The position numbers were made by a program, and so were the translations under genes. Positions 150 through 27,674 of a DNA stretch of 34,280 bases are shown here, in pieces. Source of the DNA: a virus (Duplodnaviria; Heunggongvirae; Uroviricota; Caudoviricetes); the IMG/VR virus record IMGVR_UViG_3300020577_013140, positions 148,381 to 182,660 of that record. One strand, 5' to 3'. The notes beneath the pieces are model-generated. The model ran no database searches and was not told the origin of the DNA. It saw nothing but the letters and a program-made list of their open reading frames with translations. Every line of letters begins with the position of its first letter. Within the stretch, counting starts at the first letter, position 1.

Positions 150-2948
150 TTACTTCCACAACCAGGTCTTTTTCTCGAAATCCCATTTGGTCTCTTTGCT
201 GAAGACAACTTCCTTGCCCTTCCACCGATCAGATACCACCATTTCCATGCCAAGTCGATCGCCCGTTGCGATACGGCAGCCTTCGGTGAAGTAGTATTTC
301 GCGAGCTCAGGGAAATAGTTATCCCGCATCAAGTCCTTATGAACAATCCAGTAAGAAGCATCGTGCACGGAGTTGACTGGGATGACTCGGTTCATCCATA
401 GTCCCTCCTTTTGCAACTGCTTTTTCATGCTGACAGACACGTCCCACAGAAACAAAGCGAGTTCGCTGGCAATGGGATAAGCCAGTGATTCGTTTTGCCA
501 TCCGGCGATAATGCCGAAGCGGTCAGACTGGTCAAACCAGTACTTAATTCCTCGGGCATTTTCGATGTAGCCTCCAGCCACCTGAGCCTTGCATGCTTCT
601 CGATAGCGCATGTACTGTTCGTACCGATGCCAGGTCGATAGTGCATACTCGATATCTTCCATCTTCACATAAATACCTGATTCAGCGAAGATTTCCGATT
701 GGATAGGCAGGGCTGCAGCAGACAACTCGGACGTGTAGGCTACCCGGAATGTGATGGCCTTTGCCGACACATACTTCGAGTAGTCATCCTTTCCGATCTT
801 TGGATCCCGGAAGTATTCCCGGGCCTTTGTAAGATGGAATCCTCCTTGAAGGATATCCGTGATGTAATCTTGGTCCCTCGAAAGAAAAGCAGCAATTGCC
901 AGGTCCGCCCCGGCCACGTCAACCTCCGCCCAATGGAAATCTTCTTTCCCTGGGTAGAAGATGTGCCGGATATTCCTTGGAATAAGGTGGTCGTATTTCT
1001 TTCGATCCTCTTTGGAAAGAGACGCATAACCTGGCACGAAAATGTCAGGAATATGACTCAAGACCTTGGACGCCGGATTCTGTACGTTCGGCTTGGAGCT
1101 GCTTCGGAAATTGTTGAGACATTCGAAGAAATCAGCATGGATGCGCTTGTCGTTACACAAGGCGCCCCAATAGGACTGCTTCAGCGGCTCATCTTCTTCC
1201 TCTTCCTCTGCATCCAGGTTTGCCGGATCTTCCAGGTCCTTGACGAACTCCGTTCCCCGTCGGTCTAGGAACTTGTTTGCAAATACACCCACACGGTTCA
1301 AGCTCAGCAGCACTGATACAATACGTAGCTTTTGCTCCAGTGGGGTGCGCTCTTCTGCAGGCAACTTAGGATGTGCCTCAAGATACTGCAGCAACTCGAA
1401 CTTGATCGTCGCCAGCGACTTGTTGTTCGTGCTCGGTTGGTACTGCTCTTGTACGTCTTTCTTCTGCTTCACATACCACGCTCTGGGCTTTGGTGACTTG
1501 CCTGATTTCGTGTAATAGGCGGGGTTTAGCTTCAGATGGTCGTACAACAACTTCTTCTTGTCAGGAGAAGAAGCCGGATTGAAGTCAGGCATCATCGGAG
1601 TAACCAACTCCAGCAACTGTGCCTTCAGCTCACTAAACTTCGAAGAGAACTTGGTGCTCAAGTCCTCCAGGATTACTGTGTCAATTGGGATGCCGTACAT
1701 CTCCAGGTCGACAAAGTAATTGGATAGAGGCAGGTACGTATCGAAGTAATACGCCTGTACCGGTTTGGGAACATGTTGCCTCATGTACTCCCGCATGTTT
1801 ACGCAGGCCGTACGATGCGCAACCGCATCACCGGCACAGTATCGCCAATACACATCAGGCGCCAGCTGCTTCAACTTGACCAGGTCTTTCGGTGTCAGTT
1901 TATGCTCACGAAGGGCCCGTGTCAGCGGCATGTAGTACGGGTCGTACTTCGTGAACTTCTTGATTCCTGTTTCCAACCCCTTGGGGTAACGCGAATCAAA
2001 GAAAGCCACGGCCTTCATTCCATCGAAGCCCAATGTTTCTTCCCGTGGGCGAATGCCTCGCTGGATTAGGCGTTTGTCGTCAGCACGTACGTTCCAGCCA
2101 ACACGGTCAGCCTTTGGATGCTCCAATATCAGTCGCATCGTGTTCAGCAACTCCTGGTTCTCCTCCACCAGGTCCGGGCTGATGTCCAGGATGATGGCAT
2201 GATGCGGCTCACACGAGTATTGGAAAGTGGTCATGACCTCTTCCCCGTTAGCCATCTTACCTGGTGACCATTCGGCGTCATAACCGATTGTCCATAGCCC
2301 TCGGTTCATGTAGTCGACAAGGATCTCGATATTGCGCTCCGGCGTGTTAACGATCTCCCAGGTAAACGCCTGATAGTCCAGGTCGTCATCGAGGTACCGG
2401 CGTGCCAACACGAATGCGTCCTGGAATTGAGTACGCTTCTTCGGATCCTGGGTGAGAATCATACCTGGGGAGTAATTCGGCAGAATCTTCCCGTAAGGAG
2501 AATCAACAAGTTCACCCAGGTAATCGGACTGCTTCATGTTGGCCTTCATGACCCACTTGAAGACCTCAGCACCCATGGTCATGATCAAGTCAGGCTTGAC
2601 CATGGCGATTTCATATTCCAGCCATGGGGCACACTCGGCGATTTGTTCGGCGGTTGGTTTGGGCTTTTTCCCAATACCATACTTGACCATAGTCGTTACA
2701 TACAGGTCGCCGATGTTGATTCCTGCCGCCGTACAGGCGTTCTGCACCTCGGTGAGGTATTCTCCACTCAGGATACGCTGGGAGTCGAGGTCGTTGAAGT
2801 TAGGGTGGGACAAAATGAGCATGACCTTGGCGTCCCTGTTGCCAGTAGGAGGTAACCACATTTTTGGTCTTCCTCCGTCTTCCGGAGCGACGTATCGCAC
2901 CCGGAATAGATCTGCTTCGTTAATTGCGGGTTGTTCTGTGTCTGCCAT
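150..2948 (-). CDS. polA: Family A DNA polymerase with N-terminal uracil-DNA glycosylase (family 4)-like domain and 3'-5' exonuclease domain
   Basis: 932 aa. UDG-like segment (YVTTMVK...PTAEQIAECAPWLEYEIAMVKPDLIMTMG). Exonuclease motifs (GYDAE, GWNVRAD, YCAGD). PolA motifs: SSSKPNVQN, motif A DVAGADL, motif B AKAITFRVAY, motif C VHD. Confidence 0.9.
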   Translation of the reverse strand: MADTEQPAINEADLFRVRYVAPEDGGRPKMWLPPTGNRDAKVMLILSHPNFNDLDSQRILSGEYLTEVQNACTAAGINIGDLYVTTMVKYGIGKKPKPTAEQIAECAPWLEYEIAMVKPDLIMTMGAEVFKWVMKANMKQSDYLGELVDSPYGKILPNYSPGMILTQDPKKRTQFQDAFVLARRYLDDDLDYQAFTWEIVNTPERNIEILVDYMNRGLWTIGYDAEWSPGKMANGEEVMTTFQYSCEPHHAIILDISPDLVEENQELLNTMRLILEHPKADRVGWNVRADDKRLIQRGIRPREETLGFDGMKAVAFFDSRYPKGLETGIKKFTKYDPYYMPLTRALREHKLTPKDLVKLKQLAPDVYWRYCAGDAVAHRTACVNMREYMRQHVPKPVQAYYFDTYLPLSNYFVDLEMYGIPIDTVILEDLSTKFSSKFSELKAQLLELVTPMMPDFNPASSPDKKKLLYDHLKLNPAYYTKSGKSPKPRAWYVKQKKDVQEQYQPSTNNKSLATIKFELLQYLEAHPKLPAEERTPLEQKLRIVSVLLSLNRVGVFANKFLDRRGTEFVKDLEDPANLDAEEEEEDEPLKQSYWGALCNDKRIHADFFECLNNFRSSSKPNVQNPASKVLSHIPDIFVPGYASLSKEDRKKYDHLIPRNIRHIFYPGKEDFHWAEVDVAGADLAIAAFLSRDQDYITDILQGGFHLTKAREYFRDPKIGKDDYSKYVSAKAITFRVAYTSELSAAALPIQSEIFAESGIYVKMEDIEYALSTWHRYEQYMRYREACKAQVAGGYIENARGIKYWFDQSDRFGIIAGWQNESLAYPIASELALFLWDVSVSMKKQLQKEGLWMNRVIPVNSVHDASYWIVHKDLMRDNYFPELAKYYFTEGCRIATGDRLGMEMVVSDRWKGKEVVFSKETKWDFEKKTWLWK

Positions 2949-2954
2949 ATGAAG

Positions 2955-4448
2955 TTAAATGCCTGCGAGTAATGATGGTGGTACAGGCGGTCCACCCGTT
3001 GAAGGGGGTTGTAACAATTGTCGCATATCCCCTTGATGTTGGAAATTACCTGAGGACATGGCGGTGTGTACTCCGGCCGGTGTGCCTGGCGGCGGAGGTG
3101 TGACTGATCCAATGGACTGCGCGTCCCCAGGACCATCCGCCTTTTCAATGAACTTCATCCACTTCAAGTCGCCATGCAGCGGAAGCCTAAAGTTCTTCGC
3201 ATGCCGGTTCTTGAGGGAGAATATTTCAAAGTTATCGGAAGCAGGATTCTCGCGACCGATGCCCAGTACCGTTTCCGGTTTGTGGACAATACCTTTGAAC
3301 CCAGCGATTTCGTCATTCGAAAAATAGATTTTGACCTTTCCTTTCGCTTGGTGCAAAACCCACATTCCGAAGTGCTTACCTGTGTCGGCGATTGGTTGAT
3401 GGGAAATCTCATCCAACTCCTTTACCACCCGCCCTTCCTTAATCCAGTCCTGCTCCCCAGGCTGTACGCTCTCCGGCTCCATAAACTGAAGCTGATCGAC
3501 GACTAGCAGTTCGAACATGAAGCCGTGCTTGACTGCGTAATCGTCGACAAGCTGTTTTAGCTGCGTGGGCTTCATCGGGGTCATGCCCTTAAGGTCCAAC
3601 AAGACCAGGTTTTCTTGAAGGAGCTTCATACGTGGGGCATCAGTATCGGATGCGATCTTCTGCTCCAGCTCAAGGTATCCGCTGCCATTATGAAGGCTGG
3701 TGTAGTCAACCTCGAATACCGCTGCGTACATACGGTTTGCGATATCTTCCTTTTCTTCCTCCATCGAGCAGTAAATAACCTTGTGACCGGCCAATGCCGC
3801 ACCACGAGCAATCGATGTACCCATCGCTGTTTTACCACCACCAGAGTGCCCTACGATGAGTCCAAACTCTCTGTAGCCGACACCGCCACCAAGGGCCGCA
3901 TTTAGCTTCGCGAACCCCGTAGGGATCATGGAGCAAATAGACTTCTTAAGAATGGTGGCAAATGGGCTTACGAAGCGTTCATCGACCGGGATCTCGGAGT
4001 CGTCCAGCGTGTCGAGTGGGAAGATTACCTTGCGGTATTCCGTAGCCAGTCGCTCCAAATCTCCGCCTGCCTCGGCGACGATCTTGGCAGACCGCCGCGC
4101 CTTGATGAATTTGGGAAGCAACTCAACGACGTAGCTTTCCATCAGTTGAGTGTTCCCGACAAGACGTAGGAGCAGGTGCGGCAGTTGCTCGTAAACAGCA
4201 GGAGATAGCCCTTGGGCGGCCCTCCGGCCGAAATGGATTTTAAGCACATCCAGCAGGATTGGTGCCTCTCCAATTTCCAGAAGAACTTCAGCGACGATTT
4301 TGTAGAGAGGCAGCTGGTACTCTCCAGGAGGCAGGAAATCGTCAGGGGACAGTCCTAACGACTTCGCCTTTTTCATGACCACCGAAGAGTGCATCAAGTG
4401 GCGTAGAACCAGCTCGGACATGTCCTGGCTATTGTAATTTTCGCTCAT
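2955..4448 (-). CDS. dnaB: DnaB/RecA-fold (SF4) replicative DNA helicase
   Basis: TGFAKLNAALGGG, Walker A GHSGGGKT, SMEE, Walker B LLVVDQLQ, HQ motif, KNRH arginine finger; adjacent to the polymerase. Confidence 0.88.
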   Translation of the reverse strand: MSENYNSQDMSELVLRHLMHSSVVMKKAKSLGLSPDDFLPPGEYQLPLYKIVAEVLLEIGEAPILLDVLKIHFGRRAAQGLSPAVYEQLPHLLLRLVGNTQLMESYVVELLPKFIKARRSAKIVAEAGGDLERLATEYRKVIFPLDTLDDSEIPVDERFVSPFATILKKSICSMIPTGFAKLNAALGGGVGYREFGLIVGHSGGGKTAMGTSIARGAALAGHKVIYCSMEEEKEDIANRMYAAVFEVDYTSLHNGSGYLELEQKIASDTDAPRMKLLQENLVLLDLKGMTPMKPTQLKQLVDDYAVKHGFMFELLVVDQLQFMEPESVQPGEQDWIKEGRVVKELDEISHQPIADTGKHFGMWVLHQAKGKVKIYFSNDEIAGFKGIVHKPETVLGIGRENPASDNFEIFSLKNRHAKNFRLPLHGDLKWMKFIEKADGPGDAQSIGSVTPPPPGTPAGVHTAMSSGNFQHQGDMRQLLQPPSTGGPPVPPSLLAGI

Positions 4449-4984
4449 AGGGCTCGTAGTCTTGACACATTTTGAGCAGCCACGCCGGACAAGAATGTCA
4501 GCAACTCCTCAGTTAACTCGCTTTTTGCTTCATCCTTGTATCGATCGATGATTGATTGCACAGGCTTAACTGTAGCAACAATACGGAACCACGCGCTGAA
4601 TGGCAGCACGTGGTCCAGCAGGATGTCTTCAACTGGTCTCTTTGTCCGGTCAATGGCCGTCTTCAGCAAAGCAATCTGGGTGGTCCAAAGTTGCTTCGGA
4701 GAAACGGTTTCGTAGTTGGCGGTAAACCGCTTGGCCACTTCGAGGGCCTTGCTACCTTGAAGCTGATTGGGAAAGAAGTTATCAACCCCATCCTTCACAT
4801 ACGCCTGATACAAGGCGGTGCAGTAGTCTTCCGGGGTGATCTTGGCGGCGATGCAATTCCGTGCCCCAGCGTCAAGAGCCTGCTCGAGGTCGTTGCTCCC
4901 CCGGTAATTAGGCATTTTGCCTCGGCGATACTTGATGTACGCCGCTCGCAATCGATTCTTTATGTCGTCAAATGTCAGCTCCAT
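4445..4984 (-). CDS. Hypothetical protein (replication cluster)
   Basis: 179 aa ORF overlapping both neighbours (ATGA coupling with the helicase); no recognisable motif. Confidence 0.75.
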   Translation of the reverse strand: MELTFDDIKNRLRAAYIKYRRGKMPNYRGSNDLEQALDAGARNCIAAKITPEDYCTALYQAYVKDGVDNFFPNQLQGSKALEVAKRFTANYETVSPKQLWTTQIALLKTAIDRTKRPVEDILLDHVLPFSAWFRIVATVKPVQSIIDRYKDEAKSELTEELLTFLSGVAAQNVSRLRAL

Positions 4985-6119
4985 ATCTTGTCATCCATAG
5001 CTCGACCAAGGCGTGGTAATGTCGATTCAACGCCACATGATCCACAGACCGAGGTAGTTTGGTGGTCTTGTAGGCTTCATCGATTTTCTTGCCCATGGTA
5101 TCGGCGTACTCTACGAGTTGTTCGTATTTCCATCCGCCATTGCGGATTTCAATCAACTCGCCTGCGTCCGGCCGGCGCACCAGTACTTGCCCCGTAGTCA
5201 GGATCTCAAAACCCATGCGCAGTAAGCGCACCAGGTGCATGGAGTGTTTTACATCGTAACCGAACTTAGCTTCAAGAACTTTCCGTTCAGGATTGCGGTT
5301 GGCCTCCCACCGAACGTAGGACTCGTAAGCCCGAAGAGCCTTCTGGTAGTCATGCTCCCTGGAGATCACGGCTGTAAGCTCGTCAGACAAGTTCAACTCG
5401 CTTTGCAGTTTACTGATGGCTGCCTTCCAATGCTCGTCAGGCCAGTTATCCCAGTCGACGACTTTTCCATTTGAAAGGAGGTACACCAGTTCCCAGCAAC
5501 GCTCCTTTAACTCGCTCCGTTCCAGATCGTCGAGACGATATTGATGGAAGTTCCACTCCTCAATCAGCTTGCTAAGCTCACGGGCAATTGTTTCCACCGC
5601 CCTTGGCCTCTCCTCCGGCAACCCGAAATCACTGCGTTTCGGCTTTTCAGTAGTCGGGTCAAGTAGCCACTTCCGATGCCGGTTTATCTTGTTGAGCTGC
5701 GCAATGGCGTATCCAGTAAAAGTAAACTTAGCCTTGCTCGATAAGAATTCCGCACGTCTTCCTTGCAGCTCGTCAAAGAGTGGCACGGTAACAAGGTGGT
5801 CACTGCGGTCAGTGTAGAGTACCTCGATGATGTTCGGGTTAACGTCAGCCGCCAGCTTAAAGAACTTCTTCAGGCTATAGACGTTACTCTCCACCTTTGG
5901 GTTTAGTGGGTTAACGCGAGCTACCACCGGGTCCCAACTATGAATCTCTGGCGCATTCTCGGCTTGCTCGAACCCTTGAAATAAGTGATCACGAACCTGG
6001 ATAGGAGGAATGCACACTCCTTTGACGTCCAAGTCCGATAATGAATGATTAAGACCGTAAGCTTGAGAGCCATGAACGGTCAAAAAGAGAGTGCTGCCGC
6101 GCAGCCAAGAAAAGTCCAT
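4968..6119 (-). CDS. Pol-beta superfamily nucleotidyltransferase (PF10127 / RlaP / YcgL-like)
   Basis: GSQAYGL...SDLDVKGV (GS + DxD signature), NPNIIEVL, and C-terminal YDVKHSMHLVRLL...IRNG typical of this family. Confidence 0.85.
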   Translation of the reverse strand: MDFSWLRGSTLFLTVHGSQAYGLNHSLSDLDVKGVCIPPIQVRDHLFQGFEQAENAPEIHSWDPVVARVNPLNPKVESNVYSLKKFFKLAADVNPNIIEVLYTDRSDHLVTVPLFDELQGRRAEFLSSKAKFTFTGYAIAQLNKINRHRKWLLDPTTEKPKRSDFGLPEERPRAVETIARELSKLIEEWNFHQYRLDDLERSELKERCWELVYLLSNGKVVDWDNWPDEHWKAAISKLQSELNLSDELTAVISREHDYQKALRAYESYVRWEANRNPERKVLEAKFGYDVKHSMHLVRLLRMGFEILTTGQVLVRRPDAGELIEIRNGGWKYEQLVEYADTMGKKIDEAYKTTKLPRSVDHVALNRHYHALVELWMTRYGADI

Positions 6120-6122
6120 AAA

Positions 6123-6617
6123 TCAAAGTTCTATTCTACGTAGTTCTTCACCACCGGCCACAGTGGCACGAGCGATGGCCTCCCGAGCCCGTTGCAGCAA
6201 GAGGTTTGAAAGGTTACGGGTCCCACGACAGGAAGGATACCCAGTGCAGCCTAGAAACGCCTGGCCGTTTAGTCGGTTGTGCCTCACGACCATCGGCTTT
6301 TGACAGACACCACACTTCTCTGACGACGCATCGATCCTGGCTTGTTGACCACAGGTGGGGCAAGAGGTTGTAGTGTGGCGCACAGAGGACTCAGCCGCAG
6401 TAGGGCGGTTCCATATCCCACTATGCTGAGGAGTCGTCGCAGGCGGTTGTGAAAACAAGCTGTTCAAACCAACTTGCGCTCCCAGGTATCCGCGAATTTG
6501 TTCTTTTATCGGGTCAACTTCCGCGGCTAGTTGCGATGGCGGAGTCGAGTTACGCAGGAGCTTTAATATCCACTCTACTGCTTGAGGATATTGCTCATAA
6601 AGGGTCTGTGTGCTCAT
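6123..6617 (-). CDS. Protein with C-terminal topoisomerase-type C4 zinc ribbon
   Basis: CPTCG and CGVCQKPMVVR...FLGCTGYPSCRGT, matching the zf-C4_Topoisom pattern. Confidence 0.8.
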   Translation of the reverse strand: MSTQTLYEQYPQAVEWILKLLRNSTPPSQLAAEVDPIKEQIRGYLGAQVGLNSLFSQPPATTPQHSGIWNRPTAAESSVRHTTTSCPTCGQQARIDASSEKCGVCQKPMVVRHNRLNGQAFLGCTGYPSCRGTRNLSNLLLQRAREAIARATVAGGEELRRIEL

Positions 6618-7554
6618 AGTTTCGCCATTCGTTGTATAGCGTGAAGCTGAGTTGATCCGTCGTCATTTCGTCAGGTGACGGAAAGCCGTATGGCCCAAGG
6701 TCGACATTTAAGGCTCGCAGTCCGTAAGCCCGTAGCGAAGCCGCAACACGGCGACCAATCGCTTGGGCAACGTCCTGAGCGTCAAGACATACGATTATAT
6801 TCTTCCAGTTGGTCAAGAGTTGCACTTGGGCATCCGTCAGGTCCTTGCCGAAGCAAGCCACTGCATTAGGCAGTTTCAATGCCTTCTTGACACCCTCAAC
6901 CAATACGACTGTCTGATACTGCCTGGCCTTGTCGTAGTTGAACAAGTACTGCCCCTTGTTGAACAAGTGGTAGTATTTGACTGCATCTTCTCGATCACCG
7001 TATGTGGTCCCGGGTATAGACCTCATTTGCCAGCCAACCAACTCGTTGTTGAACCGCACCGGGAAGATCAGCCTCTCAGCCGATGAAATAAACGGGCGAC
7101 TGGAGAAGGTCATTCCAGCGTCACAAGGGCAATAGCAAATCCCGTATTCAGTGGCGTACCGATCCAAATCGAACAGATGATCTTTGTGCAGGAACTTGAC
7201 GGCCGGATGGTCCAAAGGCAACTGGTTCACCGGAATAAACCGAAGACCTGGCATCTGCCTCGCCATCGGGTTTTCCTTTTTGGGCTCCAACTCCACAGTG
7301 GACTGTGCTGTGCCAGATACCCTGATAAATTGGTCCCCGACCAGCTCAGCCTCCTGCATAGGCATCTCACAAATGAAGCACCTATTGAACAGTCGATCCA
7401 GGTGTACGTATCGCTTGAACTTCTTTTTGTCCCTTGCGGTACAAGTTGGACAAGCGATACGTACCCATCCGTTCGAGGCCGGTTTTACCGTTCCGAATTT
7501 CTCTCGTAGTTTCGAAAGTACACGGACCTCGTTCTCGTTCATAAGAATTAGCAA
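6595..7554 (-). CDS. dnaG: DnaG-type DNA primase (zinc finger + TOPRIM), divergent
   Basis: N-terminal CPTC...CFIC, RLIFPV...VGWQMR, KYY...LFNYD, TOPRIM-like LVEG, AVACFGK, CLDAQD. Confidence 0.8.
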   Translation of the reverse strand: MLILMNENEVRVLSKLREKFGTVKPASNGWVRIACPTCTARDKKKFKRYVHLDRLFNRCFICEMPMQEAELVGDQFIRVSGTAQSTVELEPKKENPMARQMPGLRFIPVNQLPLDHPAVKFLHKDHLFDLDRYATEYGICYCPCDAGMTFSSRPFISSAERLIFPVRFNNELVGWQMRSIPGTTYGDREDAVKYYHLFNKGQYLFNYDKARQYQTVVLVEGVKKALKLPNAVACFGKDLTDAQVQLLTNWKNIIVCLDAQDVAQAIGRRVAASLRAYGLRALNVDLGPYGFPSPDEMTTDQLSFTLYNEWRNYEHTDPL

Positions 7555-16634: not shown

Positions 16635-18226
16635 ATGGCAATACTCCGCAGTTCTTCTTTTACGTCGACCACCGTTCCATCGTTACCGGCCATACGCAGC
16701 TTACCTTCAGCCTCGGCGCGCATCCGGACGATATCTGCCTCGTTCGTCTTCGATTGCGGGGTGGTTCCCTGAATTTCCTGGATCAAGTCTGCGTCAGAGA
16801 ACTCGCGTTGACCGTCAGAGAAACACTTGAACATCACGCTGACGATCACTTGTTCAATCTCTGCGCCGGTGAACCCTCGGGACTCCTTCGCCAGGTGTTT
16901 CAAATTGAACTTGCCTGGTTCCCTGCCGTAGCGCTTCAGCAATACGCGGAAGATCGAAGCTCGGTCAGCCTCAGAAGGCAGGTCCAGCCAGAACAACTCG
17001 TCAAACCGTCCCTTACGAATCATCTCCGGGGGAAGGATCGTAAAGTTGTTTGAAGTGCCGATCACAAAGACCGGAGTCTTGTGCTCAGAAAGCCACGTCA
17101 ACAGAGTACCAAAACTTCTGGATGACGTGCCGGTATCGCCCTGGCCTGATACGGCGGAGCGATTCAACGATTTCTCGATCTCGTCGATATAGAGGATACA
17201 GCTGCCGATACCATCCACAGCCTGAATGACGCGCCGGAAGTTCTGTTCGGTTTCGCCAACCAACTTACCGAACAATGAACCGATGTCCAGTTGGAAGGCA
17301 GGTAGTCCGAGTTCCGCCGACGTCGCCTTGGCGAGTAGCGTTTTACCAGATCCCGGGACGCCGCACAGCAGCACACCCCTTGGGTAAGGTAGCCCGTATT
17401 TCCGTGCAGCCGGAAGATACGCCTGTCCACGCTGACGGATCCAGGCTTTCAACCCTTCCAGCCCGCCGACCTCATCAAACGTCACATCAGGCTCCAGGTA
17501 AGTAAGCAGCCCGGACTTCTTCAGGTGCGCAACCTTTTCGGTAAACACAGAATCGACAAAGGTCCGATCGAACTTCTTGCTACCCACGATGGCAAGAGTG
17601 TACGCGTTTTCAGCCTCGCTGTCCGTTAATCCCTTCGCCGCCTCAATGGCCTTGGCCATGATTTCCGGGGAAATGGAAAAGTCGTGGTGTGACCCGGCTG
17701 CCTTGGTGGCCTCGACCCCGCGCTGTACGAAAAGAAGTCGGTCTCGCAACCCTTCGTCACCCGGCAGGGCGAAGTCGAGCACCTGGACGTCCTTGATGAG
17801 CTCCTCAGGTATCGCATAAAGAGGAGTGACGAATAACACGGTTGTACCTTTACTCTTCAACCGTCCGATCACATTTCGAAACGCACGGCGCACCGAAGGG
17901 TCCTGGAAGTACGGATGAAAATCCTTGAGAATGAAAAGCTGCCGGTCAGCCGAATTCTTCTCGATGTACTCCAGCAACTTCTTCACTACTGCCGTATCGT
18001 TAATCGCTGTGCGTGATTTGTTCAACTCCATCTTGGTGAGTCCGCGAATGGCGTCCCATTCGAGGATAGTCCGGGCACGCCGGCCACTCTCAGGAGGAGG
18101 GTTAAGAACCCAGTCCGAGATCTCACTGATTACACGGCCTTCCTCGTGAGTCTGAACCCACAACAACGGATAACTCGAATTGAGATAGGCTTCGAGCCGG
18201 CCCTGGAATGACACCCTGGAACTCAT
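16631..18226 (-). CDS. ycf46: Ycf46-family AAA+ ATPase
   Basis: N-terminal YPLLWVQTHEEGR and LKDFH (degenerate first AAA module), VGGLEGLKAW, GVPGSGKT, YIDEIEK, TSN, PPEMIRKGRFDELFWLDLP, GFTGAEIEQ. Confidence 0.92.
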   Translation of the reverse strand: MSSRVSFQGRLEAYLNSSYPLLWVQTHEEGRVISEISDWVLNPPPESGRRARTILEWDAIRGLTKMELNKSRTAINDTAVVKKLLEYIEKNSADRQLFILKDFHPYFQDPSVRRAFRNVIGRLKSKGTTVLFVTPLYAIPEELIKDVQVLDFALPGDEGLRDRLLFVQRGVEATKAAGSHHDFSISPEIMAKAIEAAKGLTDSEAENAYTLAIVGSKKFDRTFVDSVFTEKVAHLKKSGLLTYLEPDVTFDEVGGLEGLKAWIRQRGQAYLPAARKYGLPYPRGVLLCGVPGSGKTLLAKATSAELGLPAFQLDIGSLFGKLVGETEQNFRRVIQAVDGIGSCILYIDEIEKSLNRSAVSGQGDTGTSSRSFGTLLTWLSEHKTPVFVIGTSNNFTILPPEMIRKGRFDELFWLDLPSEADRASIFRVLLKRYGREPGKFNLKHLAKESRGFTGAEIEQVIVSVMFKCFSDGQREFSDADLIQEIQGTTPQSKTNEADIVRMRAEAEGKLRMAGNDGTVVDVKEELRSIAI

Positions 18227-18232
18227 TGTAGC

Positions 18233-18610
18233 TTAGGTGCTTGAAACTTTACATGTTTCGCCAGTATCAAGGAGAGACTCAAGCAAATTGACCACACGGT
18301 CAACTGCCGCACTGGCGTAATCGTCGCCTCTCCTGCTAGTAAGTAATTGAACTTCCTGCATGACCTCGAGATCCTCCTCCAGCTGAGGCAGGTCAAGGTC
18401 GTCGAAAAAGGTACGGCGGATTTGTGCCCGCCGTGCCTCTGGGGATGCTGCTGGTGCTGAAGGTCGCTCAGAAGGGACCAATACTACGGACCCCTTGAAC
18501 GCCAGTTGCACCAGCTTTTCCACTTCAGCTGCATCGATTGGAAGTCGCGCAGATGAAGGACGCGAGGGTTTAGCCCCCGACTTTTTCGTGACCCGCTTGG
18601 GCTTTGGCAT
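18233..18610 (-). CDS. Hypothetical protein with basic N-terminal tail
   Basis: 125 aa; MPKPKRVTKKSGAKPSRP N-terminus; acidic helical C-terminus. Confidence 0.6.
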   Translation of the reverse strand: MPKPKRVTKKSGAKPSRPSSARLPIDAAEVEKLVQLAFKGSVVLVPSERPSAPAASPEARRAQIRRTFFDDLDLPQLEEDLEVMQEVQLLTSRRGDDYASAAVDRVVNLLESLLDTGETCKVSST

Positions 18611-19214
18611 GTTGGTCGATGAGTTTCAGAACGTCGATTTCGAAAAAGTCCACAAGGACCTTCAACACCGCCAACGGCACAGTCATGCCCGGGCGGACTT
18701 TTCCTTCAAAGAACAGCTTCTGCCGTGGCGAGGCCTGGTCAAAGAATGCCGTCGCATGAGCCTGAAGTTCTTTCAGTGCCGGATGGCGCAGGTCAAGCAC
18801 CGTGTATGCGGCGAGTTTTTCCTGAGAAGCTTCCTGGTCAGGAGCGTCGTCCGTGTCGGTTCGTGTGATCTGCGTCGCTGCTGGAACGGTCGTAGTTACG
18901 ACTGGAGGCAGTGGTGGCGGTGTCACCGCAGGCACCACAACCCTCGGGGTACGCTTCGCTGGCTCTGGTGTAGGAGCGGCGGGCGCAGGAGCGGCGGGTG
19001 CGCCGTCCTTGGGCTTGTTCTTGCTCCCAGGAGGCCGGCCACGACGCTTGGGAACCTCGGCAGTTGCCGGAGGAGCAGGCGGAGGCGGTGGAGGCGTAGC
19101 AGCAACCGCGCGGGCGCGCTTCTGTACAGTAGGCGCCGGGGTAGGTGCAAGAGTACTAGCTGCTGTGACAGCAGGGAGCTTGGGTTTGTTCTTGGATCCT
19201 TTAGGTCTTCCCAT
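18570..19214 (-). CDS. Pro/Ala-rich protein with two AT-hook motifs (putative DNA-binding protein)
   Basis: MGRPKGSKNKPK and KRRGRPPGSKNKPK separated by Pro/Ala linkers; small globular C-terminal region. Confidence 0.75.
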   Translation of the reverse strand: MGRPKGSKNKPKLPAVTAASTLAPTPAPTVQKRARAVAATPPPPPPAPPATAEVPKRRGRPPGSKNKPKDGAPAAPAPAAPTPEPAKRTPRVVVPAVTPPPLPPVVTTTVPAATQITRTDTDDAPDQEASQEKLAAYTVLDLRHPALKELQAHATAFFDQASPRQKLFFEGKVRPGMTVPLAVLKVLVDFFEIDVLKLIDQHAKAQAGHEKVGG

Positions 19215-19216
19215 AA

Positions 19217-19354
19217 TTACTTGTTCTTCTTTGGGTTCTTCACTGCGCTCACGGTACGGCTCTTCGCCTTACCGGTGATATAGGTCGGGGAGGAAGAGGT
19301 TTGTGGGTTAATCGAACCGTCTTTCGCTGTTACCCGCTTGGTTGTTTTGCTCAT
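19217..19354 (-). CDS. 45-aa basic peptide not in the ORF track (MSKTTKRVTAKDGSINPQTSSSPTYITGKAKSRTVSAVKNPKKNK)
   Basis: Translated by hand: ATG at 19354, TAA at 19217-19219, 2 nt before the AT-hook gene ATG. Confidence 0.6.
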   Translation of the reverse strand: MSKTTKRVTAKDGSINPQTSSSPTYITGKAKSRTVSAVKNPKKNK

Positions 19355-19407
19355 TTGGCGTTCGGTTGTTTACTGGCAAAATGGCTTTTACGATGATAAC
19401 TACGCCA

Positions 19408-19436
19408 TTGATCATCATCGAAAAGGAAGTTACAAT
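19408..19436 (+). promoter_or_regulatory. Sigma70-like promoter for the terminase gene
   Basis: TTGATC (19408-13), 17-nt spacer, TACAAT (19431-36), about 40 nt upstream of ATG 19476. Confidence 0.55.
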
Positions 19437-19475
19437 GAGTTCCAGCCAGGTATTAAAAGCTGGTGACTCATTACT

Positions 19476-21209
19476 ATGATATCGAATCTGCATGCTCTGC
19501 TTGCTAAAGCTAAGGAAATATTATCCTCGCCAGCATCCAAGGAGGAAGCCAAAGCCACCGCAAGGCAGCTGCTTTTCTTGTCTGCTCCGCTCTCCACCGT
19601 TGTTGAGACTTATCTCTATGACAACGAAGGGCGTCCACAAAGTCTGGAAAAGTTCCAGATGATGCGGGCAATCTATGATGGTACTCCGCAGAGGCTTTTA
19701 TTAAAGTGCAGCCGTAAGACACTGAAATCAACCCTGTTGAGCAACATGATCGCGCTGAATTTGCTGCGATACCAGCATTACAAGATGCTATATGTGGCTC
19801 CACAAGAACTATCGGCAAAATACTTTAGCAACAACTATCTTAATGTGCGATTCGAAAGCCCACCGTTGAAGCAGGTGCTTCGTGGGTTTAGTAGAAATGA
19901 CGTATTTGAAAAAATCCTGGAAGATACGAATAGTAGCGTAATCCTGCGTTACTGCAAAGAGGACGCCTCGCGTATTCGTGGTCCCGCTACTGACCAGAAC
20001 ATTCATGACGAGGTGCAGGACATGGCGTTTGAAACTCTCCCCATTATCAAAGAGACAATGGCATTGTCTGCGTTCAAACGAGAGATTTTCGCCGGTACTC
20101 CACTGACCACCGACAACACCATCAATGAGCTGTGGAAAACATCCAGCCAATGCGAATGGGTTACCAAGTGCCCCGCGTGCGGGCATTGGAACAGCCTTAC
20201 TCCCGACAACGAGCCATTCAAGATGGTCCGAAAGGAAGGGCTCTCTTGCAGTAAGTGCAGCACCTTGCTCAATACAGGTACAGGCGAGTGGGTGGAGTTT
20301 AACCCTGGTGCCTATGACCTGATCGGTTATCATCTGGCCCAACCAATCCTGACACACTTCAACCAAGACCCGAGGGAATGGGCTGAAATCTACAAGAAGG
20401 TTTGGAACACCGGGCCAAACAAATACTCACCAGCCCAAATCAACAACGAGGTATTCGGCCTCGCTTTCGACACCGGTTCCAAGCCCATCACCGAGGAGCA
20501 GCTAAAGAAGCTGTCGACTCTCGGTGATATGGATGGTGTTTACACCAGAGGGTTGTCGAGGTATCTATATATTACTTGTGGTGTTGACTGGGGCGTCAAC
20601 ATGGATACTTCTCGTACCGCAGTCGTTATGGGAGGTCTTCGTGAAGACGGGGTGTACGAAGTGTTCTTCGCACGCATCCTAAAGGACTTTGACTACGAGA
20701 AGCATATCCATGACATCGCCGAATTTGCCAACCGAGTAAACGCTTTTTGTGCTTGTGACGCGGGCCCAGACCCTGCACGTGGTAAGATGCTGGCGGACCA
20801 GACGTCGTGGCAGCGTACTCAGCTGGTTCGTTACGAGGATGGGTTGCTTATGCAACAATACAAGACACCACCGAACGCGATTCACCCGTCGCAGAATCGC
20901 TGGTGCTTGCATCGCAGTGACACCATGACCTTTGTGTTCAACCAACTAAAGGCCGGGAAGGTGTTGTTCCCAAATTGGGAACAGACGTCGGAGTGTCATA
21001 GTGACATCTTGAACATCTTCGTTGAAGTGAAGGAAGGCGTGCTCCGGCAAGAACTGGTCTACCGCCACCCCGCAGCCAAGCCTGATGACTTCTTCCATGC
21101 ACTAAATTTTGCTGTGTGCCAAGCGCATTTGCTGGCCGGTAATCCTGTGCTCAACGCACCCTCATCCTCTGCTGTTGACGGGGAGTGGCGCGGCGGGGTC
21201 CACGGGTAA
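19476..21209 (+). CDS. terL: Terminase large subunit (GpA-like)
   Basis: Walker A-like SRKTLKST, RIRG, Walker B HDEVQD, GTP coupling motif, CPACGHW/CSKC zinc finger, RNase H-like GVDWG ... DDFFHA. Confidence 0.85.
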   Translation: MISNLHALLAKAKEILSSPASKEEAKATARQLLFLSAPLSTVVETYLYDNEGRPQSLEKFQMMRAIYDGTPQRLLLKCSRKTLKSTLLSNMIALNLLRYQHYKMLYVAPQELSAKYFSNNYLNVRFESPPLKQVLRGFSRNDVFEKILEDTNSSVILRYCKEDASRIRGPATDQNIHDEVQDMAFETLPIIKETMALSAFKREIFAGTPLTTDNTINELWKTSSQCEWVTKCPACGHWNSLTPDNEPFKMVRKEGLSCSKCSTLLNTGTGEWVEFNPGAYDLIGYHLAQPILTHFNQDPREWAEIYKKVWNTGPNKYSPAQINNEVFGLAFDTGSKPITEEQLKKLSTLGDMDGVYTRGLSRYLYITCGVDWGVNMDTSRTAVVMGGLREDGVYEVFFARILKDFDYEKHIHDIAEFANRVNAFCACDAGPDPARGKMLADQTSWQRTQLVRYEDGLLMQQYKTPPNAIHPSQNRWCLHRSDTMTFVFNQLKAGKVLFPNWEQTSECHSDILNIFVEVKEGVLRQELVYRHPAAKPDDFFHALNFAVCQAHLLAGNPVLNAPSSSAVDGEWRGGVHG

Positions 21210-21440
21210 TGCCTGGAAGTTGCTGCAAGATTCCAACCAGACTGGGTCAAAGTTGAAAGGCCAGAAAAACCAACCCTGCGCTACTCCGTGGGAATTTGCG
21301 GTAACCTGCTTAAAGCTCAAAGCTCCAGTACAACGGGAATGACAATCCCCAGGGATGGATCGACGGTGGACACATCGGTAGCATAGCGGGTCTTGTGGGC
21401 TACTTAAGGTCACCGTCGGTGGTGTAACTTGTGTGGGCAT
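21162..21440 (-). CDS. Small Cys/His-rich phage protein
   Basis: CYRCVHRRSIPGDCHSRC...HG...GWFFWPFNFDPVWLESC; 3' end overlaps the convergent terminase by 48 nt. Confidence 0.7.
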   Translation of the reverse strand: MPTQVTPPTVTLSSPQDPLCYRCVHRRSIPGDCHSRCTGALSFKQVTANSHGVAQGWFFWPFNFDPVWLESCSNFQALPVDPAAPLPVNSRG

Positions 21441-21442
21441 AA

Positions 21443-21865
21443 CTAAACAGGCAGTACGAGGGCAAAACGATCCTCACACATGGCGAGGAAAAGTTCCTCG
21501 CCGTCATCACCAAAGCGCCCAGTCACGGCCCGGTACAATTCCACCATGATGTTGGCGAACCCTTGGATGACCTCTGCGTATCGAGGATGGTTGATAAACG
21601 CTTCGGTCACTGCGATCTTCACCCGAGGAAGAAGCTTGGAGACGAGCGGTTTTGAGAGTCCGCCTGCAATGAGGCGGTCACTCAATGCACTATACGCCAC
21701 CAAGGCCGGGAGGGTCGAGAGATCACGAGCGGCCGCAGCCTTCATTCCCTCGACATACTGAGGGAGGACCTCATCGAGCGAAGGAGGACGGGGAGGCATA
21801 GGAGGCCCACCAAGAAGAGGAGCGTTACGGAGTTGGTCAGGAGTCAAGATACGCGGTTGATTCAT
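21443..21865 (-). CDS. Hypothetical protein
   Basis: About 140 aa from ATG 21865 (MNQPRILTPDQ...); the longer ORF-track start overlaps the upstream gene heavily. Confidence 0.6.
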   Translation of the reverse strand: MNQPRILTPDQLRNAPLLGGPPMPPRPPSLDEVLPQYVEGMKAAAARDLSTLPALVAYSALSDRLIAGGLSKPLVSKLLPRVKIAVTEAFINHPRYAEVIQGFANIMVELYRAVTGRFGDDGEELFLAMCEDRFALVLPV

Positions 21866-22556
21866 AGAGTTCAGTACGGAGTTCTTTCTGGGCGGTATCC
21901 TCGGCGAGTTTAGCTCGACGGAGATTGTCACGGCCGTTATAGGCAGAGTGCCCATGCAAGTGGCTGATAAGAGGATAGAAATTGTTGCAATCCATGTGAC
22001 GTTGCAACTGAGCGATTTGGGTGTCCAGGTCGCCGTCACATGCCGGCAACTTGCTGATGTACGCTGGGCGAATGCGCAACTGGAACATCCACGGGGACCG
22101 GAAAGAGTAGTGTGCCGGGCGAAAGCGCCGATCTTTCGGATAGCAACAACAGAAAGGAGCGTTGCATTCGTGGCGATAAAACCACTTCTTCAAAGATTCT
22201 GGTAGGTCCTTAGGCCAACCAATTTCTTCTCCAGTCGAATAATGCGGGCGCACCTCGATAGGGCGAAGCGGAGGCGGATCCAGGGTCACACGCTTTTTCC
22301 GCCCAAAACCCCTAACCAGAAAATCCTGGGTCTTGGACCACTGATGGCAGCCGATGTGGTTCAGGATCTTGCGGAAGTCCGCAGCGTCAGCTCGGGCCGC
22401 CACATCCGGGCGAAGGTCCCAGTCACGGATCCAACCGTATTGAAACGGTTTACACGGTACCCACCTTCCACACCATCGTTGTTGGTGCAACTCGTTCAGC
22501 CGACGGAATGTTGCCAGCGCGTGTTTGTTACGTTGTTGAACTTTATTCAGGAGCAC
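21837..22556 (-). CDS. Basic, aromatic-rich hypothetical protein
   Basis: 239 aa with GTG start; W/R-rich (PFQYGWIRDWDLRPDVAAR...SPWMFQLRIRP); lies downstream of the RNA ligase. Confidence 0.7.
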   Translation of the reverse strand: MLLNKVQQRNKHALATFRRLNELHQQRWCGRWVPCKPFQYGWIRDWDLRPDVAARADAADFRKILNHIGCHQWSKTQDFLVRGFGRKKRVTLDPPPLRPIEVRPHYSTGEEIGWPKDLPESLKKWFYRHECNAPFCCCYPKDRRFRPAHYSFRSPWMFQLRIRPAYISKLPACDGDLDTQIAQLQRHMDCNNFYPLISHLHGHSAYNGRDNLRRAKLAEDTAQKELRTELYESTAYLDS

Positions 22557-22560
22557 AATG

Positions 22561-22584
22561 AAAAAGCCGGCCCATAAGGCCGGC
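22561..22584 (-). terminator. Rho-independent terminator after the RNA ligase
   Basis: Minus strand GCCGGCC-TTATG-GGCCGGC followed by TTTTT, about 20 nt after the ligase stop. Confidence 0.8.
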
Positions 22585-22604
22585 CGATTAGTGACATAGT
22601 TGCT

Positions 22605-23639
22605 CTACTCTCCGTACTTGAGTAGAAATTCGGGGTTGATTACCTTGAAGGACAGACGCCCAAGGTCACAGTCGACTGTTTCGACATGTGGTCGGAAAAC
22701 CCCTCCTTCAATCCACACTTGTGGGTTGAGTAGTGACTTACGCGTGACGAACTCCACCAACGAGTCGACGGTGTGTCCCGCCAGCGTAATACTAGGCTCA
22801 ATGATCGGAACCATCCCAATATTCCAAGTCTGACACCACGAGGCGAGCTCCTCATTGGTAAGGAAGCGATGCCGGTCGATGTCGAACAGGTTGAAAGCAA
22901 AGAACTGGACGGAGGACAGCCCTAGTTTGTTGCTCTGAATGTTCGGACCCGCGAGTTCTCCCTGAACGGCGTAATGCGTCCCATGCGCTTGCCCGTATTG
23001 TTCAAGTGCTTCGTGGATCTGACGTTCTGCGGCCACCTTCCACTGAACGGCGTCTCCTGGGATAAGGTCACGATTTCTGGAACAGGCACCACGCATGGGT
23101 TGACCATCCAATGCCATGGTTGAATAGTAGGTTGTGGACATTCCGTCAATCTTCTCGGTGACGGTGAATTGTATGTTCGGCCACCGCTGTAAGACGGATG
23201 GGCACGCCTGGAGTCTTGTTTCGTCCGTCTTGACGAGGAAGGAAGGAAAGTCTCCACGAGCCAGACCAGCCATAACCGCAGGGAGAGGAGGAGGTTCATA
23301 TTTCGTGATACCTAGGACTCCCGTAACATCGGTGCCTACCTGAAGAAGTTTGACGGCGGCCAGTTGTGGAAGACCTAAACCTAGGACCAACCCTTGGGAG
23401 ATTTGTTTTTTCATCCTCACCGTCTTCAGTCGGAGAGGTTTGTCCGGGATCAGTTCGCCTGTCCACGGGTTAAAAGGAAGCATTGAATCTGGCTCGATAT
23501 AGACGACCAGATCGCCCACCCTGAACTCCCCCTTTCTAACGACACACTTCCAACCGAGCACAGTTGCGCTCTCGATTTTGTCTGCGTCTGGAATAGGTTG
23601 GAGATCAACGATGCGCTGAATACTAGCGAGTTGTCTCAT
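22605..23639 (-). CDS. ATP-dependent RNA ligase, DRB0094/Rnl5 family
   Basis: N-terminal RQLASIQRI...PIPDADKIE...GW...VY.EPDS...SQGL, FPSFLVKTDETRLQ, adenylation motif TEKIDG, SRN, QGEL, EGGV, SFKVINPEFLLK. Confidence 0.92.
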   Translation of the reverse strand: MRQLASIQRIVDLQPIPDADKIESATVLGWKCVVRKGEFRVGDLVVYIEPDSMLPFNPWTGELIPDKPLRLKTVRMKKQISQGLVLGLGLPQLAAVKLLQVGTDVTGVLGITKYEPPPLPAVMAGLARGDFPSFLVKTDETRLQACPSVLQRWPNIQFTVTEKIDGMSTTYYSTMALDGQPMRGACSRNRDLIPGDAVQWKVAAERQIHEALEQYGQAHGTHYAVQGELAGPNIQSNKLGLSSVQFFAFNLFDIDRHRFLTNEELASWCQTWNIGMVPIIEPSITLAGHTVDSLVEFVTRKSLLNPQVWIEGGVFRPHVETVDCDLGRLSFKVINPEFLLKYGE

Positions 23640-24199
23640 TGACGAACGAGTGACTGGACATAATCCGTAAGGGCTTTTGTCCTAGCATCGTAGATTGCGC
23701 TCAAAGCCGCATTCTTCTCTGACGGATCCGCCTTGACCGATGGAGGCATCAAGGCGCCCTTAAAAATAGACGCCGCTTCCGACATACCATAGTGATAGAG
23801 TATCACCCCGACGTAGGCCTTTACTTCATCTGAGAAGGGCGTATCCTCGGCGTCACCGACGAAAAGCCGATAGTGCGCCAGGGCGGCGGCTAATTCTTCA
23901 GCTTCTAGAGGTGTTGGGTCTTCAAAGCTGTCTGGTGTATTGTTGAGAAGGTGACAGACGGTTTTGAATACTTCCCACTGACTTTGGAACAAGTCGGTCT
24001 GGAGAATCGTGAACCCTGCTTGAATCTTGTCAGATTGTAGATCCGAAAGGGTTACGCCGAAATCCGATTCCAATTCTTCCCGTAGGAACTCAGGCTGCCA
24101 AGACATTGCCTCTGTACCATATCGACGCAGCACGACGTCAACCAGAGCGATTGCCGGGGCCTTCTCATCCTTCAACACCTCTAACGAGAATATGGTCAT
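23636..24199 (-). CDS. Hypothetical acidic helical protein
   Basis: 187 aa, ATGA-coupled to the ligase. Confidence 0.75.
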   Translation of the reverse strand: MTIFSLEVLKDEKAPAIALVDVVLRRYGTEAMSWQPEFLREELESDFGVTLSDLQSDKIQAGFTILQTDLFQSQWEVFKTVCHLLNNTPDSFEDPTPLEAEELAAALAHYRLFVGDAEDTPFSDEVKAYVGVILYHYGMSEAASIFKGALMPPSVKADPSEKNAALSAIYDARTKALTDYVQSLVRQ

Positions 24200-24204
24200 G
24201 GGAG

Positions 24205-24435
24205 TTATATCGTAACTTGGTCGGTCTCGTCTCCGGTCATTGGATTATCGAAGAAGCCTTCGTCTTTCAGATACTTAACAAAAGCCTGTTGCTCGGCTGG
24301 CTTCAACGGACGCCCTGAGGAAAGGGTGAATACGTTGTTCCCTGGAAACACCCGTAGAGCAAGAGGTACACCACGCAAGGTTAGCTGGTGGTCAAAATAA
24401 ACAGGAGCAGGTATGGGAGCCATGTTGAGTTGCAT
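24205..24435 (-). CDS. Small hypothetical protein
   Basis: 76 aa, ATG start, packed with neighbours; KYLKDEGFF near the C-terminus. Confidence 0.6.
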   Translation of the reverse strand: MQLNMAPIPAPVYFDHQLTLRGVPLALRVFPGNNVFTLSSGRPLKPAEQQAFVKYLKDEGFFDNPMTGDETDQVTI

Positions 24436-24486
24436 ATGTAAGGCCCGACCGGTACAGGATCAGGGCTTAAAACATGTTGCGGAGAG

Positions 24487-24675
24487 CTACCTCTCGTCAA
24501 CAAGAAGCTTCCCTGTCTCGGCATTCTTAAAGATCCACGCAGTACGTTCAGCGTAGTCCATCTTGTCGAAACCCTTCTGCAGGGTTTCCCTAATCAAACT
24601 AACGTCGAGGTCGAAGGTGGTAGTCACCTCGTCCTGGGTGTTACGGTCAAAGCCCGTGGCTAATGTGAATCTCAT
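24487..24675 (-). CDS. Small hypothetical protein
   Basis: 62 aa; ATG 6 nt after the upstream stop. Confidence 0.6.
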   Translation of the reverse strand: MRFTLATGFDRNTQDEVTTTFDLDVSLIRETLQKGFDKMDYAERTAWIFKNAETGKLLVDER

Positions 24676-24681
24676 TCAGAG

Positions 24682-25737: not shown

Positions 25738-25744
25738 ATCCATT

Positions 25745-25773
25745 ATCCTAGCACCGGATATGGTTCGACACAA
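25745..25773 (-). promoter_or_regulatory. Sigma70-like promoter with extended -10
   Basis: Minus strand TTGTGT, 17-nt spacer ending TGC, then TAGGAT; 7 nt upstream of ATG 25737. Confidence 0.5.
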
Positions 25774-25790
25774 TCCAAAAGTATGATACC

Positions 25791-27074: not shown

Positions 27075-27111
27075 AAATAACCACGGCTTTCAAGTTGTTA
27101 TACCACAAACC

Positions 27112-27133
27112 ACCCCCCTAATACATGGGGGGT
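27112..27133. terminator. Stem-loop between convergent genes
   Basis: ACCCCCC-TAATACAT-GGGGGGT in the 63-nt gap between stops at 27074 and 27138; poor U-tract. Confidence 0.5.
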
Positions 27134-27137
27134 CCGG

Positions 27138-27674
27138 TTAAAAGAGCTGTCCGATGTCGGGGGTATTGGGGCCAGTGATTTCCGCCGGGACGCGTAGCTC
27201 ATCCGCAGTACCCCCCGGGCCAATAGCCGTCGGCTCACCATCCTGTATGCCGAGCTTTGGGTTTGGCGAAGCCGCAGAAAGCTCCAGGCTAAAGCATCCC
27301 CTAAACGGAGGCATGATTCGACCGGTGGTCTTATGCGCCGCTTGGACGACAAAGTAATAAACCCCTGCCGGCAACCTGCTGGATATGGTGGCAGGTATTG
27401 TGACCTCATACACCCCAGCAGGCTTATTTGCCGGGTGAGTCGTTATGTCCTGCTGAAAGATGACATTCTCGGCCATCTCCGATTTCTTGACCACAAAGGT
27501 AAGGCGATAGTCCCCCAACGTAATTGGCTCGTTGTCAGCATCAAGCAGGAACATGGGCAACACAATGTCGCTCCCCTGATAATGTGGCGTTGTAGCTGGT
27601 GGGGTGAACGACCACTCAGTCTGGGCGTAAACCGGGTCACGGACAAAAGTGAAGCTAGGAAGTCGAGTGTGCAT
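27138..27674 (-). CDS. Putative virion protein with BppU N-terminal-like Ig/beta-sandwich domain
   Basis: YQGSD...LLDADNEPITLGDY...FVVKK...GVYEVTIPATIS..LPAGVYYF pattern typical of BppU-like domains. Confidence 0.55.
   Translation of the reverse strand: MHTRLPSFTFVRDPVYAQTEWSFTPPATTPHYQGSDIVLPMFLLDADNEPITLGDYRLTFVVKKSEMAENVIFQQDITTHPANKPAGVYEVTIPATISSRLPAGVYYFVVQAAHKTTGRIMPPFRGCFSLELSAASPNPKLGIQDGEPTAIGPGGTADELRVPAEITGPNTPDIGQLF

Follow-up and report, generated by a model that had tools for sequence, protein, structure and literature searches.

A phage clade of UDG-exonuclease-family A polymerase fusions with a rebuilt nucleotide pocket

We describe here a DNA polymerase gene, P0001, encoded in a 34,280-nucleotide stretch of phage DNA (the window) that forms the last 34 kb of the linear, 182,660-bp IMG/VR virus record IMGVR_UViG_3300020577_013140. 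Its product, a fusion that joins a uracil-DNA glycosylase (UDG)-like domain, a 3'-5' exonuclease and a family A polymerase (PolA), is in all likelihood an active, proofreading replicative polymerase that belongs to a new subfamily of UDG-PolA fusions and possesses a co-adapted, rebuilt nucleotide pocket. As judged from alignments, the two-metal core (D677, D863), the residues K730, F734 and Y738, R615 and the DEDDy exonuclease site are under strong purifying selection, and the residues that surround the incoming nucleotide and terminal base pair form a rebuilt shell. The shell changes comprise an Asp at the steric gate, a Tyr in place of the triphosphate-binding Arg, Asn, Ala and Ala in place of R841, N845 and Q849 of Escherichia coli Pol I, and a new invariant Arg beside F734. 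Three of the residues concerned, Glu at the gate, Arg in motif B and Gln in motif 6, are regarded as near-universal in family A and are the usual targets of polymerase engineering. The whole clade to which P0001 belongs, with at least 190 protein clusters at 90% identity, replaced all three under strong purifying selection. The clade represents a natural experiment on rebuilding a Pol I-type pocket. It also supplies candidates for work with altered substrates and a marker by which a large group of uncultured phages can be recognised.

Residue equivalences were derived in three ways: by phmmer comparison with the Klenow chains in the PDB, by comparison of a 42-sequence profile with the PDB, and by a MAFFT alignment with E. 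coli PolA, T7 gp5, N4 gp39 and an SPO1-like polymerase, which were taken from annotated records and whose reference numbering was verified. All three alignment methods gave the same equivalences to E. coli Pol I, which are listed below with their positions in the window.

1104..1112, minus strand: equivalent of the TGR motif, NFR; the Arg is kept (R615, equivalent to Pol I R668), and Thr-Gly is replaced by Asn-Phe
897..926, minus strand: motif A, EVDVAGADLA; D677 corresponds to D705 and is kept, and D682 (codon 903-905, GAC) stands at the steric-gate position of E710, which is changed
732..773, minus strand: motif B or O-helix, YVSAKAITFRVAYT; K730, F734 and Y738 correspond to K758, F762 and Y766 and are kept, and Y726, R735 and T739 replace R754, G763 and G767
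465..494, minus strand: motif 6, NESLAYPIAS; N819, A823 and A827 replace R841, N845 and Q849
357..368, minus strand: motif C, VHDA; H862 and the catalytic D863 correspond to H881 and D882 and are kept, and A864 replaces E883

The motif strings quoted in a preliminary description of this DNA were all present, and the span it gave (358-920) runs from the D677 codon (918-920) to the A864 codon (357-359). Its central claim, that an Asp occupies the steric gate, was borne out, as D682 aligned with E710 in all alignments and no other residue fell at the gate. The spacing of five residues from the catalytic Asp to the gate is free of insertions and deletions and matches that of Klenow (D705/E710) and T7 (D475/E480). 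A register shift that would move another residue to the gate was considered and is ruled out, because this five-residue spacing is fixed in every alignment. By sequence comparison, the changes specific to the clade are E710D, R754Y, G763R, G767T, R841N, N845A, Q849A and the exchange of Thr-Gly for Asn-Phe in the TGR motif.

The rebuilt pocket is shared by a large set of homologues. A word-indexed search recovered 190 relatives at E ≤ 0.001. The 120 relatives among the matches listed are 54-92% identical over the polymerase part and lie on contigs of up to 236 kb; nearly all of them have 870-970 residues and the same architecture as P0001, and all clade members carry the UDG-like domain. Among 167 full-length clade members, on which all conservation counts for the clade are based, D677, D682, Y726, K730, F734, Y738, N819, A823 and D863 are present without exception, and R735, A827 and A864 in 166. 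The TGR-motif Arg R615 is invariant as well. Retention of the catalytic Asp residues and of the motif B Lys, Phe and Tyr, which the preliminary description had read from the single sequence, is thus a property of the entire clade. The same applies to the loss of the motif B Arg: the family pattern R-x3-K-x3-F/Y-x3-Y is broken throughout by a Tyr at the Arg position (167/167). The AYPIAS string in motif 6, also reported earlier, reflects the exchanges of N845 for A823 and Q849 for A827, to which our alignments add that of R841 for N819.

Codon usage and substitution rates indicate strong purifying selection. In 35 genes, D682 is encoded by GAC (27 times) or GAT (eight times) and never by GAA or GAG, five codons are in use for R735, and all four Ala codons are in use at A823, A827 and A864. 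Codons at these five positions turn over synonymously without any change of the amino acid. Relative to the closest relative (90% identical, gap-free), the ratio of nonsynonymous to synonymous substitution rates (dN/dS) is 0.034 overall, 0.015 for residues 660-880 and 0.023 for the UDG-like domain, values that are approximate because dS is near saturation. The conserved pattern of the pocket is far beyond chance. Pseudogene formation or decay was considered separately and is ruled out by the dN/dS of 0.03, the intact open reading frames (ORFs) in 167 members and the synonymous codon turnover.

The polymerase and proofreading modules were delimited within the gene as follows.

150..2948, minus strand: whole gene P0001, UDG-like/3'-5' exonuclease/family A polymerase fusion of 932 residues, stop codon at 150-152
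2412..2852, minus strand: family-4 UDG-like domain, residues 33-179 (Pfam PF03167, E 2.7e-12, and alignment to PDB family-4 UDGs)
1773..2363, minus strand: 3'-5' exonuclease domain, residues ~196-392, assigned from motif residues
2271-2279, minus strand: Exo I, D224-x-E226
2079-2093, minus strand: Exo II, N286-xxx-D290
1827-1841, minus strand: Exo III, Y370-xxx-D374
153..1751, minus strand: polymerase domain, residues 400-932 (PHROG 17, E 1e-34; Klenow alignments; Foldseek)

The 932-residue ORF matches PHROG 17 ('DNA polymerase') at E 1e-34, and its match to the Pfam 3'-5' exonuclease family is weak. The DEDDy proofreading residues D224/E226, N286/D290 and Y370/D374 are kept in 165-167 of the clade members. 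An AlphaFold2 (AF2) model of P0001, built with 42 homologues, is confident (predicted local distance difference test, pLDDT, 87.8; predicted template modelling score, pTM, 0.82). It contains a strand (671-678) that ends with D677, a helix (681-690) with D682 at its start and palm strands at the C-terminal end. The top 50 Foldseek matches of the model are all PolA structures, with Klenow 8oo6_A as the best (E 5.6e-23, target-normalised TM 0.82). The model indicates that P0001 has a Klenow-type exonuclease and the palm/fingers/thumb fold.

In an exhaustive profile search of 1.84 billion representatives, the clade formed a tight island: full-length representatives scored 849-1418 bits, and the next proteins, which are other UDG-exonuclease-PolA fusions, scored at most 226 bits. 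The stem branch of the clade has a length of 1.88 substitutions per site. By these sequence relationships, the P0001 clade is placed as a new, deep-branching subfamily of UDG/3'-5' exonuclease/PolA fusions. Among 123 neighbouring UDG-PolAs, the gate Glu is present in 122/122, the motif B Arg in 116, the motif 6 Gln in 107 and the equivalent of R841 in 112. The gate (position A2) is also among the highly conserved positions across 19 PolA clusters, with only B3 being variable (Czernecki et al. 2023, PMC10201439). Motif C behaves differently. It reads HDA in 80, HDS in 18 and HDE in three of the neighbouring fusions, i.e., HDA or HDS in 98 of the 108 with a residue there, HDA in N4 gp39 as in P0001, and HDS, also without the Glu, in the SPO1-like enzyme. 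The HDA of P0001, which the preliminary description had listed among its anomalies, is therefore ordinary in phage UDG-PolAs.

Among 50,697 GenBank phage records there was no close homologue: with the whole protein as tblastn query, matches were confined to the UDG domains of other phage polymerases, with only the polymerase domain no match was better than E 8e-4, and megablast with 20 kb of the window gave no match. We found no paper that describes the P0001 clade, and a literature search on E615D or E710D returned nothing relevant. One clade member, P0123 (RTL07782.1, on a 226,528-bp contig), has an NCBI entry that labels it a hypothetical protein and assigns it to a metagenome-assembled genome of a 'Candidatus Dependentiae bacterium'; because its relatives have phage content, this contig is probably a mis-binned phage genome. 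Three metagenomic neighbouring UDG-PolA fusions carry insertions of 319-403 residues, located after the motif B Phe in P0247 and P0259 and within motif B in P0248. These insertions start with Cys and two of them end with Ser-Asn; they are probably inteins in the O-helix.

The genomic neighbourhood of P0001 is that of a replication gene. The polymerase gene lies in a minus-strand run that encodes a DnaB-like helicase, an RlaP-like nucleotidyltransferase, a zinc-ribbon protein, a Toprim-like protein, an AAA ATPase, a superfamily 2 (SF2) helicase and Rad50, with the following features.

2955..4448, minus strand: DnaB-like replicative helicase, immediately upstream of the polymerase in an operon-like run (PF03796, E 2.2e-13)
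4968-6119, minus strand: nucleotidyltransferase of the RlaP-like type (Pol beta superfamily), with the zinc-ribbon/Toprim genes on one side and the helicase gene on the other
6595..7554, minus strand: Toprim-like protein, candidate primase (PF13155, E 0.0013, weak and below the curated cut-off)

The order of genes in this run is identical in the relative L047, which has the RlaP-like nucleotidyltransferase at the same place (2832-3983). Pfam searches of 200 ORFs with 90 or more residues, the polymerase being scanned separately, further identified TerL, RecA, DNA ligase and RNase H in the record. PolB was found neither in the record nor in five relatives of 93-100% completeness (one of which, with direct terminal repeats, has 204,454 bp), a second PolA was not found in the record, and a search for DnaE in the record and in four relatives of at least 94% completeness found none. 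Because no other DNA polymerase was recognised in the record or in its near-complete relatives, P0001 most likely encodes the replicase of an uncultured phage of ~180-235 kb. The preliminary description had considered the enzyme probably active, and the invariant core, the intact DEDDy site, the dN/dS of ~0.03, the position in a replication module and the status as the only recognisable DNA polymerase all point in the same direction.

How could a polymerase function with such a pocket? We propose that P0001 would still make DNA from ordinary dNTPs, with proofreading. The joint change of the gate and motif 6 (Asp with Ala, or Glu with Ser in two sister sequences) would represent a co-adapted re-packing of a hydrogen-bond network with no loss of function, and the triphosphate contacts may have been taken over by other basic residues, namely the nearly invariant K725, K628 or R735. 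In other PolAs, the hydrogen-bond partners of the gate Glu are Tyr of motif B, Gln of motif 6 and Arg of the TGR motif, and the exchanges tolerated at Taq E615 are mainly conservative (PMC6158600). In P0001, the Tyr and Arg partners of the gate are kept, and the gate and its motif 6 partner change together; this pairing is suggestive of network re-packing.

Four divergent sister sequences (P0149, P0150, P0151 and P0153) bear on this proposal, as they share the rebuilt motif B and motif 6. P0150 and P0153 combine the gate Asp with Ala at the Q849 position, as do 166 of the 167 main-clade members; P0149 and P0151 combine a gate Glu with Ser at that position. P0151 additionally retains Asn at the N761 and N845 positions. 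P0149 and P0151 may be intermediates of the pocket rebuild. In the rooted tree, the Glu-bearing pair falls inside an Asp background, and because its placement has a support of only 0.02-0.33, we assign no polarity to the exchange between Glu and Asp. When the four sisters served as queries of another homologue search, mostly main-clade sequences came back, and no new members with a gate Glu were added.

Several observations weigh against an active replicase with a co-adapted pocket. The co-variation of gate and motif 6 rests on two Glu-bearing sequences with a poorly supported position in the tree. Single mutation of R754 or Q849 strongly lowers the activity of Klenow, so that the activity predicted for P0001 depends on compensation. 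Pfam DNA_pol_A (PF00476) matches P0001 at 28.9 bits, which is below the gathering cut-off of 34.3, and over residues 600-740 only. The CheckV completeness of the record is 83%, though complete relatives show the same gene content. Finally, our interpretation draws on sequence, predicted fold and genomic context.

Altered sugar selectivity or fidelity, which the preliminary description had inferred, might plausibly result from the rebuilt pocket. It is possible, if on the whole rather unlikely, that the gate Asp together with the missing motif 6 Gln makes the enzyme less strict in excluding rNTPs or 2'-modified nucleotides. The side chain of Asp is shorter by one methylene, at a position that abuts C2' of the incoming sugar, and the codon data point to selection specific for Asp over Glu. 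The gate Glu is otherwise near-universal, both in the neighbouring UDG-PolAs (122/122) and as the conserved position A2 of the 19 PolA clusters (PMC10201439), and the gate residue is altered in NTP-accepting variants engineered from Taq and Pol theta (PMC6158600, PMC7863901). An enzyme with relaxed sugar selection may embed ribonucleotides or extend RNA-containing primers, which could aid replication at low dNTP pools. However, P0001 keeps a carboxylate at the gate as well as F734 and Y738, both required if the gate is to be effective, and the phage invests in dNTP supply with a class II ribonucleotide reductase, ThyX, dTMP kinase, dCMP deaminase and dUTPase. RNase HII, an enzyme of ribonucleotide excision that might be expected with heavy ribonucleotide incorporation, was found neither in the record nor in four relatives. 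Moreover, the Asp is not obligatory for the scaffold, because two of the sisters have Glu in the same rebuilt background. We likewise consider it rather unlikely that, in this natural proofreading family A replicase, replacement of the steric gate and the minor-groove checking network has measurably relaxed sugar or shape selectivity. If true, nucleotides excluded by Pol I-type enzymes, such as rNTPs and 2'-modified or bulky non-canonical ones, would be accepted, whether as an adaptation of the large phages concerned or as a scaffold that is ready-made for the engineering of polymerases. If selectivity is ordinary, the 'invariant' residues of family A would be replaceable as a set.

In Pol I, R841, N845 and Q849 probe the minor groove or the template. 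All three are replaced in P0001, and without these readers the pocket might accommodate a modified base pair and be suited to non-canonical bases; the preliminary description had likewise raised a modified genome. We regard this as improbable. Thymine-modified DNA occurs in other UDG-PolA phages, i.e., SPO1, SP-15 and YerA41 (PMC10201439, PMC13697223), and the genome analysed here carries several glycosyltransferases and S-adenosylmethionine (SAM) methyltransferases to which no targets are assigned. Yet the methyltransferase families found differ from the usual DNA methyltransferase families, and the nucleotide supply looks canonical: ordinary dTTP is indicated by ThyX, dTMP kinase, dUTPase and dCMP deaminase, and ThyA-type dUMP/dCMP hydroxymethylase, PurZ and DpdA/TGT were not found in the record or in relatives of at least 93% completeness (four or five, depending on the search). 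Only two of five relatives have ThyX, and therefore no nucleotide pathway tracks the polymerase. The UDG domain of P0001 is degenerate, as opposed to the active UDG of phages with modified thymine. Taken together, a modified genome is not supported.

That P0001 is a weak or inactive scaffold or a repair-only polymerase, with replication performed by host enzymes, would fit the loss of R754 and Q849, both important in Klenow, and the sub-threshold Pfam score, but is very improbable given that the clade is invariant in the two catalytic Asp residues, in K730, F734 and Y738 and in the exonuclease site, that the dN/dS of the active-site region is 0.015, that the gene adjoins the helicase gene in a conserved replication module, that no other polymerase was found encoded, and that these genomes of ~200 kb carry their own helicases, Toprim-like candidate primase, ligase, RNase H and dNTP synthesis.

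The UDG-like domain matches PDB family-4 UDGs at E ~5e-7, and its catalytic loop is degenerate, with LSHPN where UdgX-type enzymes have GEQPG in the PDB family-4 alignment. P0001 thus lacks the feature of a competent UDG that marks the SPO1-like and SP15-like enzymes. By analogy with the proposal for N4-like enzymes, the domain is probably a structural or DNA-handling module. Strong purifying selection on this domain (dN/dS 0.023) despite the degenerate loop suggests a conserved role other than that of a glycosylase.

Further features of the phage were observed outside the replication run. The large terminase (GpA-type ATPase; window 19476-21209, plus strand) is nearest to those of Salmonella phage Arash (180.8 kb, 29.6% identity) and of Vibrio phages of ~187 kb. 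It provides the only link to cultured phages that we found, and those phages do not have this polymerase. An island of 33 tRNA genes, one of them with an odd anticodon loop, extends over about 38.6-61.5 kb of G000 (L003 1253 to L004 4382), and a further tRNA-Met gene lies away from the island (L008 2562-2638). The record also encodes Thg1, the head domain of a CCA-adding enzyme/poly(A) polymerase, two RNA ligases, PTH2 and a TROVE/Ro60-like protein, which together with the tRNA island amounts to a large investment in translation and RNA repair. A giant ORF of 3175 residues is located on the plus strand at G000 17705-27232 (L002:1-9528). One ORF within this part of the genome matches RNA_pol_Rpb2_3 (PF04565) at E 3e-05, and this candidate may be a virion or multisubunit-type RNA polymerase.

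Fusions of UDG and PolA have been described as N4-like enzymes (cluster 17, with an inactive UDG) and as SPO1-like and SP15-like enzymes with an active UDG (PMC10201439; Missoury et al. 2026, PMC13697223). The polymerase of the SPO1-like Lysinibacillus phage vB_LfM_LysYB1 (WAB25010.1) has the same order of a family-4 UDG, a 3'-5' exonuclease and PolA, and matches the clade in profile-profile comparison over 717 columns (probability 99.35%, E 6.2e-21). It retains Glu at the gate, Arg in motif B and the Arg, Asn and Gln of motif 6, all of them replaced in P0001, and its UDG type is reported to be active (PMC13697223), in contrast to the degenerate catalytic loop of P0001. N4 gp39 resembles P0001 in the combination of exonuclease and PolA with a UDG domain whose catalytic residues are not conserved, and in the Phe at B3, but its sequence relationship to the clade is weak (hhalign probability 88%, E 3.2e-6) and it retains the gate E593 together with R650, R743, N747 and Q751, all of which are replaced in P0001. 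By profile-profile comparison, the clade thus appears nearer to the SPO1-like enzyme than to N4 gp39. The SP15-like UDG-PolAs of YerA41 and phiLo are, as proposed for P0001, replicative phage PolAs with a UDG domain. In the published description, their UDG is active, they contain two large inserts, and ~80 additional residues form a further C-terminal domain; measured against that description, none of this was apparent in P0001. They are also set apart by thymine-hypermodified genomes that encode PolX and a ligase as well (PMC13697223).

Outside the UDG fusions, T7 gp5 has no UDG domain and keeps E480, R518, N611, Q615 and E655. As in P0001, the positions of Y706 and Q708 in its motif A (DASGLELR) are occupied by small residues. 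Of the motif A deviation stressed in the preliminary description, the gate Asp remains as specific to the clade, and the Val and Gly resemble what is seen in T7 gp5. Klenow and E. coli Pol I are ~18% identical to P0001 and have in common with it the catalytic Asp pair, K758, F762 and Y766, the TGR Arg and the DEDDy exonuclease. P0001 differs from them by E710D, R754Y, G763R, G767T, R841N, N845A, Q849A and E883A, and the 5' nuclease of E. coli Pol I is replaced by the N-terminal UDG-like domain.

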